NCBI GenBank assembly: GCA_964457785.1
Contig: CAYWEX010000002.1
Coordinates: 15,691-79,690, forward strand
Direction of reading: 5' to 3'
Source: Candidatus Woesearchaeota archaeon
GTDB lineage: Archaea > Nanobdellota > Nanobdellia > SCGC-AAA011-G17 > JACPIM01
DNA: 64,000 bases
Made by a program: the position numbers and the translations under genes. A model generated the notes under the pieces. It searched no databases, was not told the DNA's origin, and saw only the letters and a list, made by a program, of their open reading frames with translations. This document shows, piece by piece, positions 8,536 to 12,607 of this stretch. The stretch's first letter is position 1, and the number at the start of each line of letters is the position of its first letter.

Positions 8536-9264
8536 TTAATTTACCTCCTTAGTTTTCTTGACTTTTGGTTTTTGAATTATCATTTCCAATTCTTCTTTTT
8601 TATATTCTTTTTCTAAATGAACTGGAGAGCCCATGGACATTTTTATAATTGCACTTTTAATATTATTTTTTTCTTGAGGTAATGAGTGTAATACTGATGT
8701 ATAAACATGCAAGATATTATCTGCCAATTCTTCGTCTTTCATAGATTCATTTCCAACCAAGGCTTTAACTGTCGGCTCATTTTTAGTCTGCAATCTTATT
8801 GTTTTTCTTAATTTTTCTGCCAATGGCTTTAATGTTGGAACAGCTCCAGGTATTACTGCGCCGACTTTAGGATTTGGCATTTTTCCCAATGGTCCAAGTA
8901 TTTTACCAAATAATGTAGCTATTTTTGGCATTATATCTGCTTGTGCAATAAAAAAATCATTCTGCCTACCTATTTTTTTTAATTCTTTTTTTTTGTCTTC
9001 ATATTTTGGAAACTGGTCTTTTAGAATTATAATGTCGGCAATTTCTTTTGATTGCTTTTCTAGATCATAATCTACTAATGCTGCTATTTTTACTTGTTTT
9101 CCTGTAGAATGCGGGAGCTGTAGGAATAAATCAACATTACCTTCTGGTTTTTTTACATTCATATTTTTTAGATTTATGACTATGTCAAAACCTTGCTTAA
9201 AATTTCTTTTCTTAGAAAGTTCTCTTGCTAATTTTATTGCTTCTAAAACTTCATTCTTTTCCAT
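8536..9264 (-). CDS. rpl1: Ribosomal protein uL1
   Basis: MEKNEVLEAIKLARE...FDIVINLK...; AGGAGG SD 7 nt upstream of the ATG at 9264. The track's TTG start at 9306 reads through the stem-loop element and is rejected. Confidence 0.9.
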   Translation of the reverse strand: MEKNEVLEAIKLARELSKKRNFKQGFDIVINLKNMNVKKPEGNVDLFLQLPHSTGKQVKIAALVDYDLEKQSKEIADIIILKDQFPKYEDKKKELKKIGRQNDFFIAQADIMPKIATLFGKILGPLGKMPNPKVGAVIPGAVPTLKPLAEKLRKTIRLQTKNEPTVKALVGNESMKDEELADNILHVYTSVLHSLPQEKNNIKSAIIKMSMGSPVHLEKEYKKEELEMIIQKPKVKKTKEVN

Positions 9265-9277
9265 TAATTCCCTCCTA

Positions 9278-9306
9278 CGAACCTTTTTTGGGAAAAGCTT
9301 CACCAA
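9278..9306 (-). repeat. Stem-loop element copy (UUGG-UGAAGCUUUU-CCCAA-AAAAGGUUCG) 13 nt upstream of the uL1 ATG
   Basis: 10-bp stem with a G.G mismatch. One C-G pair of the consensus is replaced by U-A. Confidence 0.8.
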
Positions 9307-9469
9307 AAAGCTACGGATAAACCGTTGTAGTTCAAATGGGTTATATTTTTTGTAAATTTAGGATTTATAAAACTTAGTATTTATTCTGTTATTTCTTTAG
9401 AATAGTAACAAAAAGAAAGGTTTAAATACAAGTTTATGGCTTTTATGGCAAAATGGAAGAAGGTATAAA

Positions 9470-10270
9470 ATGAGCTATTCAAGAAAATTAAGTAAAGCAG
9501 AAAGAGAATTAATAGGACAAAAAGTAGCTGAATTAGGAACTTCAAAATCCCAAATAGTTAAGGAACTTGCTTTGGAACTTGCAGAATCAAGGAAAGCTGT
9601 TTCTAATAAATTTTATGGCCATTCTAATCTTTTTGATATTGAAGCTAATGTTTTATACAGAATTTTAGGAGAAGATCCAATATTGAATTTTTTAGCTGAT
9701 TACAAACCATTAGTAGAACCAATTGAAGTTAAAGAACCAAGAAAAGTAAGGGAAAAAGAACAAATTGAAGAAAAGAAAAGCTACCAAAGAAAATTAAGTA
9801 AAAAAGAAATAGAGAAAATATCACAAAAAGTAAATGAATTGGGAACTTCAAAATCACAAATAGTTAAAAGATTTTATCAACAAACAGGTATGAAAAAGAG
9901 TTCTGCCGGGTATAAATTCTTTGGGTTATGCCCAATAACTGAAGAGGAAGCTGGGGTTTTGTATAAAGTTTTGGGAGAGGATCATAATTTAGATTTTTTA
10001 ATTAATTATAGAGCTACGGAAGTAAAAAATCCAGAATTAGTTGGAGAGAAAAAACCAAAGAAAGAAAATGAAATTTTTCCTGAAGAAAAAGAAATATCTG
10101 AAAAACCAAGATTACTGAAAACTTCTTTGTCTGCTATTGAAAAAGCCAGGGAAAAATTAATTGATATTTACCTGGAACATATTAAATCTGATTATTTACA
10201 AGGTGATTCAGAGAGAAGAATAGAACTTACACATGGATTGGAAAAATTATTAGAAGACTTGGAAAAATAA
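9470..10270 (+). CDS. Tandem-duplicated HTH-like protein, unknown function
   Basis: Two ~78-aa repeats (aa 2-79 and 104-181: SY.RKLSK.E...KV.ELGTSKSQIVK...VLY+.LGED..L.FL..Y). The C-terminal motif is shared with the next gene. Confidence 0.55.
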   Translation: MSYSRKLSKAERELIGQKVAELGTSKSQIVKELALELAESRKAVSNKFYGHSNLFDIEANVLYRILGEDPILNFLADYKPLVEPIEVKEPRKVREKEQIEEKKSYQRKLSKKEIEKISQKVNELGTSKSQIVKRFYQQTGMKKSSAGYKFFGLCPITEEEAGVLYKVLGEDHNLDFLINYRATEVKNPELVGEKKPKKENEIFPEEKEISEKPRLLKTSLSAIEKAREKLIDIYLEHIKSDYLQGDSERRIELTHGLEKLLEDLEK

Positions 10271-10298
10271 TTAATCTTTAGTTTTGTTTAAAACAAAA

Positions 10299-12254
10299 AT
10301 GCTCAGCTATGATTTAGAACAATTTGTAAATGATCCTGAAAAGCAGAGGTCAAGAGATTTAATTAGAGAACAAGTTGAAAAAACTTTTCCAGGAGACAGA
10401 TCTAATTTAAGAGTTGCTTTTTTTACTGGCCCTTCTTTAAAAGAAAGCGAAATATATGAAAAAGCTGGAATTAAACCTGGAAATATTTATGGGATAGAAA
10501 GAGATTCAGAAGCGTTTAATTTGGCACAATTAGAAAATCAGAGAAGGTCTTTAGAAAAAAAAATTGTCCTTTATCATGGGGATTTTGAGAGATTTGTAAG
10601 ACATGGAACTAGACTAGATGTAATTTCCTTGGATTATATTCAGACTTATGGTTCTGAAGTAATTAATGGAATTAATTCTGTTTTTGATACTCCTGGAATT
10701 TTGGCTGACAAGACTTTGCTTGTTGTTAATACGCAAGCAAGAAGAGAAGCTGCTGTTAATCAAATGAGATTGAGATTTTTGACTTTTGCAGGAATGGCAT
10801 TGAATGGAGCAGATGCTGCTTTATGGTGCGAAGTTATAGATGAAATTTCTGGGTCTCCCAAAAAGTTTGACAGGCAACATCTCGAAAACATGGATGAAAT
10901 TTTAGTTGATACTTTGATGGGCCCATTAATTCAAAGACATAAAGGGGTAAATGTAAAAAGCACTGAGTATTTGGCTTATTCACGTTATGGTTTATTTCAA
11001 GAAGTTTTGATCAGAGCTGCTTATCCTTTATTGAGGGGACTTCAAGGAGTTAGAATAGATGATTTATTTTATAATGAACATTTTGGTGAAGAAGTCAAAA
11101 AAGCTGGAAGCGAAGAAAAGAGAGAAAGTTTTAGATTTTTAGCCAAGGCTTTGGATGATATTTTAGTAGAAAAAGGAGATTCTTTATCAGATCCAGTTAG
11201 ATTAGCATATGTCGGATCTTTATCAAGCGGACGTTTTTTCCCGCTTCTTTTTAAAATGCTTTCAAAAAATCTTCCTATGCCAAATATTGAGTTAAAGGAT
11301 AAGCAAAAGATTCATTCGGCTTATTTATATAACAGGAGTGTAGCAAGAATGATTAGTTCTTATTCTACATTTAGCTATACTAGCCAGAGTAAAACACCAA
11401 TGCTTATGCATTTTTTTAATTTGGAAAGAGCACATAAACTTGATGAATTTGTAGAAGGAATGCAAGGAGGTCAAAAAACAAGAGAAACAGCACAAACTTT
11501 TAATAATCTTTTTTTTAGCATGGATCTAAAATATAAGGAATTTAGAAATTTTTTAGTAGAGAAATTTGGAAGAGTTTCAATGAAAGATATTTTCTCCATG
11601 GATGTTAAGACTTTAAAATCTTTTAGAGCTGGCCAGGAAATAATTAATAAGTTTTTTTCCAAAGAAGGAAAAAATGAAAAGTCTTCTATTTCCAAATTTA
11701 TGAAAGAGACAACATCTTTTATTGATAGAGATATAACTTTCCAAATGCAGGAATCAAAAATTATGCTTGAATATGTAGACTTTGTCAAGGGAATAGGAAG
11801 TAAATTAAGAGAAGAAGAATTAAGTAAAATAGAAAAGAAGAAATCAAGAATAGAGGGAGAAAATATGAATGAACCTAAGAAAGAACTGGAATATAAGTCT
11901 CCTGGGAAGTCCCTGGAAGAACCAGCTCCTGGGTTGAGTATTGATGGCTATTTAGATAGAATTAAAGATAAATATCTTAATGGTGATGCTGATCAAAGAT
12001 TTAAAGTTACAAAAGGGCTGGAAAAAGTAATTGGAAATATAAATAATGGAGATACGAAATTTGAGAATCTTTCTGATCTTTCTCCTGAAGATAAAAACAA
12101 AATAAGAAAAATGAATTTAGACGGTAAAACTCCAAAGGAAATTCATACAACACATTTTAAAGAAAGCAATGTAAGTGTTTATCAGATTGCAGCTATTTGT
12201 GCATGGAATAAAATATGGAGAAACAAGTATCCTGATAGAATACAGGTTTCTTAA
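10299..12254 (+). CDS. Large uncharacterised protein; N-terminal Rossmann/methyltransferase-like pattern and C-terminal HTH-like segment
   Basis: ATG at 10299 is preferred over the TTG at 10284. Strand-loop pattern RVAFFTGP / IYGIERD / LYHGDFERF / LDVISLDY / LLVVNTQ. C-terminus DGKTPKEIHTTHFKESNVSVYQIAAI. Confidence 0.5.
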   Translation: MLSYDLEQFVNDPEKQRSRDLIREQVEKTFPGDRSNLRVAFFTGPSLKESEIYEKAGIKPGNIYGIERDSEAFNLAQLENQRRSLEKKIVLYHGDFERFVRHGTRLDVISLDYIQTYGSEVINGINSVFDTPGILADKTLLVVNTQARREAAVNQMRLRFLTFAGMALNGADAALWCEVIDEISGSPKKFDRQHLENMDEILVDTLMGPLIQRHKGVNVKSTEYLAYSRYGLFQEVLIRAAYPLLRGLQGVRIDDLFYNEHFGEEVKKAGSEEKRESFRFLAKALDDILVEKGDSLSDPVRLAYVGSLSSGRFFPLLFKMLSKNLPMPNIELKDKQKIHSAYLYNRSVARMISSYSTFSYTSQSKTPMLMHFFNLERAHKLDEFVEGMQGGQKTRETAQTFNNLFFSMDLKYKEFRNFLVEKFGRVSMKDIFSMDVKTLKSFRAGQEIINKFFSKEGKNEKSSISKFMKETTSFIDRDITFQMQESKIMLEYVDFVKGIGSKLREEELSKIEKKKSRIEGENMNEPKKELEYKSPGKSLEEPAPGLSIDGYLDRIKDKYLNGDADQRFKVTKGLEKVIGNINNGDTKFENLSDLSPEDKNKIRKMNLDGKTPKEIHTTHFKESNVSVYQIAAICAWNKIWRNKYPDRIQVS

Positions 12255-12556: not shown

Positions 12557-12584
12557 AAACCTTTTTAGGAAAAAGCTTTACTAA
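12556..12584 (-). repeat. Stem-loop element copy (UUAG-UAAAGCUUUUU-CCU-AAAAAGGUUUA); the last stem base is the A of the ATG
   Basis: 11-bp stem with a G.G mismatch. An A-U pair replaces the consensus G-C pair. Confidence 0.65.
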
Positions 12585-12607
12585 AAAAACTTTTTCTTTT
12601 GACCTCC

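Follow-up and report, generated by a model that had tools for sequence, protein, structure and literature searches.

A motif-sharing gene pair upstream of rpl1 in a Woesearchaeota genome: a putative DNA-binding regulator beside a member of an unannotated methyltransferase-fold family

A gene pair with a private motif

Upstream of rpl1 in a Candidatus Woesearchaeota archaeon lie two co-directional open reading frames (ORFs), both divergent from rpl1, whose protein products share a 34-residue motif that, on the searches described below, is private to the two genes. The pair lies in a 64,000-nt stretch, here called the window (contig CAYWEX010000002.1, positions 15,691 to 79,690, assembly GCA_964457785.1), which belongs to contig C2 of a genome of 802 kb (19 contigs, ~29% GC) recovered from a groundwater metagenome. 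The small gene (9470-10270, 266 amino acids) encodes an orphan protein with an internal tandem repeat, and the large gene, which ends at 12254, encodes a member of an unannotated archaeal family that joins a class I methyltransferase-like fold to a helix-turn-helix (HTH). With somewhat less than even confidence, we read the pair, which occupies a hypervariable slot upstream of rpl1, as a lineage-specific accessory operon in which a regulator that binds DNA would be coupled by hairpin docking to a methyltransferase acting on nucleic acid. Both divergent ORFs had been recognised in an earlier interpretation of the window made from its letters (the sequence-only reading), which also remarked that rpl11 is missing beside rpl1; rpl11 sits on contig C1.

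Two candidate starts exist for the large gene, at 10284 and 10299, and the ATG at 10299 is favoured because homologue N-termini begin MTTYDVKQFERD...; this start gives a protein of 651 amino acids and a gap of 28 bp to the small gene, so short that the two are probably carried on one transcript. The GC and AT skews over the cassette agree with the coding strand, as they do in neighbouring genes. The source metagenome assembly covers the cassette without a break or an error, at a depth equal to that of its flanks, and among the source-metagenome contigs only the occupied form of the slot was seen, not the unoccupied one, rare variants being beyond the reach of the contigs.

The shared motif (Table 1) is real by every measure applied: residues 231-264 of the small protein and 548-581 of the large one are identical at 16 of 34 positions and positive at 26 of 34 (BLASTP E 1e-7), with a Smith-Waterman score of 89, where shuffles average 19.4 (z 17.3) and 0 of 2000 reach that value. 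This similarity had been the centrepiece of the sequence-only reading, and it is confined to the motif, since removal of the motif left no residual similarity between the two proteins (z 0.8); a longer match of ~155 amino acids suggested by HMMER was rejected on the same ground, as it was gone once the motif was masked. The two DNA copies are ~60% identical and the Nei-Gojobori method gives a synonymous divergence (dS) of ~1.05, which together argue for an old copy and not a recent one. The ratio of nonsynonymous to synonymous divergence (dN/dS) is ~0.42, a figure that is imprecise because it comes from 34 codons only, and by this codon comparison the protein sequence of the motif has been preserved since copying.

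We then asked where else the motif occurs. A two-sequence hidden Markov model (HMM) found it nowhere else in the 802-kb genome in any frame, in none of the large protein's 77 relatives, and in none of 15 related or syntenic loci, and a word-based search of the motif region against 5.8 billion protein clusters returned the query alone. The segment is not low-complexity either, so the outcome that the sequence-only reading had named as fatal to its proposal, a common low-complexity coiled coil present in many unrelated proteins, did not materialise; on these searches the motif is unique to the pair and is not a common coiled-coil segment. Within the large protein it forms an insertion absent from all relatives, and because the relatives lack it we read the modelled hairpin as having been inserted into the enzyme. 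Some relatives carry a second HTH at the position of the motif, which led us to ask whether the motif had decayed from an additional copy of the C-terminal HTH repeat of the family; this was rejected, since an HMM of 77 HTH copies scored the two motif copies no better than shuffles (p ~0.15-0.2).

The large protein and its family

An exhaustive HMMER search of 1.8 billion representatives recovered 77 relatives of the large protein (clusters at 50% identity), 9 of them at E ≤ 1e-30 and the nearest at 27-39% identity; a word-indexed search had returned the query only. Family members that can be placed belong to Woesearchaeota-type DPANN archaea, and the nearest named relatives are Candidatus Woesearchaeota metagenome-assembled genomes. 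On an alignment of 79 family sequences AlphaFold gave a model with a mean predicted local distance difference test score (pLDDT) of 80.8 and a predicted template modelling score of 0.73; a model from the single sequence (pLDDT 35) was not used.

In this model residues 10-180 have pLDDT >90 and the N-terminal part forms a Rossmann sandwich with strands beta1-beta5 at residues 39-42, 63-67, 90-93, 106-112 and 135-146, together with an antiparallel hairpin at 350-377 that would supply the closing strands of the methyltransferase sheet. The five strands coincide with those proposed in the sequence-only reading, whose assignment of the N-terminus to a class I methyltransferase Rossmann fold is likewise borne out by Foldseek, which retrieved class I methyltransferases of many kinds with a probability of 1.00 over the N-terminal ~150 amino acids only, and by the match of the family profile to the RsmD-like structure 2ift (HI0767; E 5.4e-5). 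Target coverage was best for the RsmD-like structures 2esr and 2fhp (target TM-score ~0.6). The helical insert between beta5 and the closing hairpin had no structural match in Foldseek and may, going by its place in the model, be a target-recognition module; further helices, one of them 60 residues long, lie outside it. The HTH-like end that had also been proposed for this protein is modelled confidently as a three-helix HTH (pLDDT 87-97), and the family keeps it in 61 of 79 members, 16 of which have two copies (tail HMM E 5e-17).

Eight positions are each kept in 90% or more of the 79 sequences, namely K15, R19, G44, E49, E67, D112, R149 and Y360; D112 is invariant in the family, and E150 in the 12 relatives closest to the large protein. 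E67, which lies in GIE(R)D where beta2 ends, is an acidic residue of the SAM-ribose type (SAM, S-adenosylmethionine) and corresponds to motif II, and D112 to the motif IV aspartate at the end of beta4. From this fold and these residues we consider that the large protein probably binds SAM and methylates nucleic acid, be it DNA or RNA.

The closest known proteins are the RsmD-like methyltransferases (Cons_hypoth95, PF03602; 2ift HI0767, 2fpo YhhF, 2esr, 2fhp), with which the family shares the Rossmann fold, the acidic residue ending beta2 and the aspartate ending beta4. Sequence similarity to them is detectable from motif II to beta5. The family differs in several respects: the DPPF of 2ift aligns in the HMM alignment with LDYlgnyG, DPPF being replaced across the family by LD(Y/F)xxxYG, a single motif I glycine is left, and the family adds a helical insert and a helical C-terminal stretch, each of ~200 residues, besides an HTH in one to two copies. 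Cons_hypoth95 matches three family members, none of them at the Pfam threshold. A few members also match Methyltransf_35 (PF20553, putative O-methyltransferase) weakly across an N-terminal helix and the Rossmann core (best E 2e-5), yet every such match falls under the curated cut-off, and the large protein itself matches neither Cons_hypoth95 nor Methyltransf_35. Because motif I retains a single glycine and motif IV is not (D/N)PP(Y/F), we file the large protein under the methyltransferase fold and under no named family.

The nearest sequence relatives being RsmD-like and TrmM/TrmN6-like RNA methylases, the large protein could be a housekeeping enzyme that, in the manner of RsmD/TrmN6, methylates bases of rRNA or tRNA, for which the ribosomal location would be meaningful and the small protein irrelevant. 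Its relatives, which are chromosomal, solo and without a conserved neighbour, do in several cases stand beside translation genes: alaS (twice, in one case with pirin), an aIF2-like GTPase with S6e, Pus10 with a tandem paralogue, EF1-beta/Pelota, and eIF2-beta with a DNA ligase; ndk is also among the neighbours. Small DPANN genomes are, however, dense in translation genes, so that such adjacency is expected by chance, and conserved synteny is absent among the relatives. RsmD is a universal housekeeping family, whereas this one is sparse and patchy: the large gene is missing from the genus's three other genomes and, across the order, from 194 of 201, a misfit with a core function. With the loss of the DPPF motif and an HTH in one to two copies that is no less suited to DNA than to RNA, we regard the housekeeping explanation as fairly improbable. 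Two relatives in different genomes, L016 4103-7791 and L029 4161-8949, are the ones that adjoin alaS, which may be residual synteny or chance.

Several features of the wider family deserve mention in their own right. A subfamily of ~520 amino acids from other Woesearchaeales families (the proteins of loci L002 and L003, alignment A6) carries two tandem C-terminal HTH copies, each closing in a nearly invariant KAH(V/I)TMGTY. One member among P0002-P0077 has a fused HNH endonuclease domain that matches ZorE, PHROG HNH models and an IscB model. On metagenome contig L042 two members stand in tandem with a 4-nt overlap (3-683 and 680-2623), the upstream copy ending in the same ...AVCAWNKI HTH, and this arrangement indicates that the family duplicates locally.

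The small protein and its promoter region

The tandem duplication that the sequence-only reading saw in the small protein is clear (Table 1): two units of ~80 amino acids align with 49% identity over 95 amino acids (E 1e-25), and an 89-nt stretch of the repeats is still 83% identical as DNA. The same reading called the units HTH-like; they are tandem, as it held, and better read as ribbon-helix-helix (RHH)-like than as HTH, since in repeat 2 the Pfam model RHH_1 is above its cut-off (22.5 bits vs. 20.5, E 1e-4, residues 108-134). FliG_N has an E-value equal to that of RHH_1 but lies under its own cut-off. Searches with the small protein, its repeat unit and the motif across 5.8 billion protein clusters, 240 order genomes, the archaeon's own genome and the Protein Data Bank (PDB) brought up no homologue beyond the pair itself.

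The resemblance to CopG/Arc/MetJ RHH repressors goes beyond the Pfam match to repeat 2. The small gene comes first in the operon, beside a possible operator, as do autoregulatory RHH proteins, and two units in one chain would give a pseudo-dimer; a natural precedent for two RHH units in a single chain is TraY of the F plasmid. The units differ from such repressors in being ~80 amino acids long, with an extra conserved helical part (…VLY+hLGED..L.FL..Y), and in belonging to a protein without homologues, for which the RHH fold and DNA binding are predicted and the HTH reading is also possible.

Repeat 1 and repeat 2 compare at dN/dS ~0.47 and dS ~0.93. As this dS is close to the value for the motif pair (both ~1), the motif may have been copied in the same period in which the repeat was duplicated; the codon comparisons indicate that repeats and motif are under constraint and of roughly equal age. 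The match in dS also points to one duplication episode, and the motif might thus be a by-product of a local duplication burst without joint function, the neighbours being a transcription factor and an independent enzyme. Such an account would fit the absence of the motif from all 77 relatives and their loci, the failure of the pair to recur and the fact that relatives of the large gene act as solo genes. Against it, the motif keeps 47% identity and 76% similarity after a dS of ~1 while its flanks retain nothing, and its dN/dS of ~0.42, imprecise over 34 codons, suggests that both copies are constrained; we hold this account to be unlikely, if a serious contender.

One might also doubt that the small ORF is a gene at all and credit function to the large gene alone, given that no homologue of it was found anywhere we searched. 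An open frame of 801 nt is very unlikely by chance in DNA of 29% GC, the in-frame repeats have a dN/dS of ~0.47, the skews match the coding strand, RHH_1 matches the translation, and the motif is conserved in protein and not in DNA; that the ORF is spurious is scarcely credible.

Between the divergent genes, the listed rpl1 ORF begins at TTG 9306, and the homologues in three sister genomes (G001-G003) begin at the equivalent of MEKNEVLEAIKLA; judged by these N-termini, the true rpl1 start is probably the ATG at 9264, and the divergent intergenic region therefore widens to ~205 bp. It contains an A/T-rich, TATA-like stretch, TTTAAATA, at about 9422-9429, and, between this box and the start codon of the small gene, a tandem repeat of an 8-mer (Table 1). 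A tandem repeat of this kind arose in 132 of 5000 intergenic shuffles (2.6%), and it is the sole such tandem pair genome-wide. From its placement, the TTTATGGC repeat is a weak candidate for an operator of the RHH-like small protein.

A dispersed element of ~30 nt, AACCTTTTT(T/A)GG(G/A)AAAAGCTT(C/T)AC(C/T)AAAAA, has copies at window positions 9280-9309, in the rpl1 leader, and 12558-12587, in the gap that separates the ATP-cone gene from ccdA. Dozens of copies, complete or partial, are detected by BLAST across most contigs, and short contigs of other metagenome organisms also pile up at its sites. We considered these two direct repeats as insertion scars of the cassette and rejected the idea: they are not cassette boundaries, because the element is dispersed genome-wide in dozens of copies and the pair also brackets the conserved ATP-cone gene.

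Table 1. Features of the gene pair and its promoter region (window coordinates; aa, amino acids)
Feature	Position	Strand	Basis
Divergent intergenic/promoter region between rpl1 and the small gene	9265..9469	.	Sequence reading; rpl1 start from sister-genome homologue N-termini
Tandem direct repeat TTTATGGC-T-TTTATGGC, exact 8-mer in 9-bp register	9433..9449	+	Candidate operator
Small orphan gene, 266 aa: two repeats, K/E-rich linker, C-terminal shared motif	9470..10270	+	ORF and homologue searches
Repeat 1, aa 2-82, opening RHH-like segment RKLSKAERELIGQKVAELGTSKSQIVKEL	9473..9715	+	Self-alignment, dN/dS
Repeat 2, aa 104-184; residues 108-134 match Pfam RHH_1 (CopG)	9779..10021	+	Pfam, self-alignment
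Shared motif, small-protein copy, aa 231-264: IDIYLEHIKSDYLQGDSERRIELTHGLEKLLEDL	10160..10261	+	BLASTP, shuffles, HMM
Large gene, 651 aa, divergent member of unannotated archaeal methyltransferase-fold and HTH family	10299..12254	+	Homologue search, model
Class I methyltransferase-like Rossmann core, beta1-beta5, aa 1-150	10299..10748	+	AlphaFold pLDDT >90, Foldseek, 2ift match, conservation
Helical insert, aa 152-348, beta5 to closing hairpin	10752..11342	+	AlphaFold, Foldseek
Conserved beta-hairpin, aa 350-377, signature YxYxSxSGxPM	11346..11429	+	AlphaFold, conservation
Shared motif, large-protein copy, aa 548-581: IDGYLDRIKDKYLNGDADQRFKVTKGLEKVIGNI	11940..12041	+	BLASTP, AlphaFold model, HMM
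C-terminal three-helix HTH-like domain, aa 596-643: ...SPEDKNKIRKMNLDGKTPKEIH...VYQIAAICAWNKI	12084..12227	+	AlphaFold, tail HMM, weak PG_1098_N match

The rpl1 slot and the possible function of the pair

The cassette lies between rpl1 and an ATP-cone gene, and no tRNA or integrase was seen near it. In the sister genome G003, whose rpl1 and CcdA products are 79% and 91% identical to those of the window, the ATP-cone and ccdA genes keep the same order and the cassette is replaced by a 200-residue orphan (L043 2429-3031), which we tried as a relative of either cassette protein and found unrelated to both. G002 has a MazE-PIN toxin-antitoxin pair divergent from rpl1 (L045 4196-4841), and G001 has nothing inserted upstream of rpl1 (L044 2225-2851). 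With content differing from species to species, the upstream side of rpl1 is a synteny breakpoint and a cargo hotspot, and the pair is, as the sequence-only reading had surmised, an accessory cassette.

That reading had also raised a viral or defence origin for the cassette, and here the searches went the other way. No relative turned up among 50,697 phage records (tblastn) or the viral contigs of IMG/VR (pattern scans with two subfamily alignments; the plasmid collection was not searched), and with neither tRNA nor integrase nearby we rejected an origin in a virus or phage. The PADLOC defence models matched neither cassette protein; the sole model with matches in the family was mad2 (PDLC04134), at 6 of 79 members with a best E of 5.8e-7. 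Mad2 is the N6-adenine methylase of MADS (bioRxiv 10.1101/2023.03.30.534895). The model is non-specific, however, in that it also matched 18 ordinary methyltransferases of the archaeon's own 0.8-Mb genome and matched in all 14 control genomes, so isolated mad2 matches are not to be read as MADS, given a model that matches any class I methyltransferase. The other MADS genes are all absent and the large gene is unmatched, and a relationship to Mad2 was rejected. More generally, neither a nuclease or restriction partner nor other system genes accompany the large gene as in a restriction-modification or MADS locus, and no specific model identifies it.

A toxin-antitoxin-like or defence cassette, in which an RHH antitoxin or repressor would neutralise a harmful methyltransferase-fold effector through its C-terminal hairpin, might still be proposed from the layout. 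Like type II toxin-antitoxin cassettes, the pair is a tight two-gene operon with a DNA-binding-type, RHH-like protein first and a larger enzyme second, and it occupies a variable slot, the same one that holds MazE-PIN in G002. Its distribution is accessory too: the large-gene family is patchy, with 7 carriers among the 201 order genomes, the closest relative (P0002) adjoining a ParE-like toxin pair and another (P0014) an IS200-type transposase. The second gene, by contrast, encodes a 651-residue methyltransferase-fold protein, an effector atypical of type II toxins, and neither product matches a known toxin or antitoxin family. At 12 loci of relatives there is no partner similar to the small gene, itself without homologues, so the pair is not a recurrent, co-inherited one; and as the relatives are partnerless, the enzyme does not intrinsically need an antidote. 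Set beside the sole, non-specific defence-model match, the lack of a nearby nuclease or restriction partner and the lack of viral or phage relatives, this makes a toxin-antitoxin or defence role improbable in our estimation.

We return to the accessory regulator-methyltransferase operon, which would work as follows. The large gene, from a sparse and fast-evolving family of genes that otherwise stand alone, would encode a self-contained enzyme, probably binding SAM and methylating nucleic acid, with its C-terminal HTH tethering it to nucleic acid and its helical insert recognising the target. The small gene would be an orphan built by local duplication, its two RHH-like units forming a pseudo-dimeric DNA-binding module that represses the operon's own promoter, and its C-terminal helical hairpin would be a copy of the hairpin inserted in the large protein. 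The simplest functional reading of the shared hairpin is that it may be a contact surface, hairpin pairing with hairpin between the proteins; the regulator would then dock on the enzyme, or compete with the enzyme's self-association, and this docking would couple control of expression to enzyme activity.

Several observations weigh against this proposal. The pair recurs nowhere, which leaves functional coupling without comparative support; the sequence-only reading had itself asked for a co-occurrence search and counted a failure of the genes to co-occur elsewhere against its idea, and nowhere else are they found together. The motif itself is possibly a neutral leftover of local duplication, and its hairpin in the large protein (residues 548-582) is modelled at low confidence (pLDDT ~55), because the relatives lack the motif. 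For the enzyme, no methyltransferase family of Pfam, NCBIfam or PADLOC passes threshold on the large protein, and mad2 failed to match it in spite of that model's promiscuity. The glycine-rich motif I (GxGxG) has the family consensus (L/F)(T/P)G(P/x)S, of which only G44 is conserved in at least 90% of sequences, and where motif IV should read (D/N/S)PP(Y/F/W) all members lack both prolines. For the regulator, the RHH assignment is a single borderline Pfam match to a single repeat.

A bolder version would join these elements: a new class of DPANN-specific, self-targeting nucleic-acid-modifying enzymes with LD(Y/F)...(K/R)RE as a non-canonical catalytic motif, one of which would have been captured in this lineage into a new type of two-component switch with a single-chain double-RHH repressor that mimics the association hairpin of the enzyme to dock on it or poison it. 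We rate this as a long shot; if true, the control would work by mimicking an oligomerisation element and be akin in function to a toxin-antitoxin or epigenetic-control module.

With the pairing unique to one genome, the general significance of the pair is limited. It does show gene birth by local duplication under way, seen in the tandem repeat and in the copying of a hairpin from one gene to its neighbour, and it identifies a cargo slot of the genus on the upstream flank of rpl1. The more general result is the unannotated methyltransferase-HTH family, 77 clusters without an above-threshold match in Pfam, NCBIfam, PHROGs or PADLOC, of which this is the first structural description and which joins a recognisable methyltransferase core to an unusual catalytic motif and an HTH of its own. 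Because DPANN genomes are very small, an accessory enzyme of 650 amino acids that is gained and lost between species likely matters to its carriers, be it in their interaction with a host, in epigenetics or in conflicts with mobile elements.

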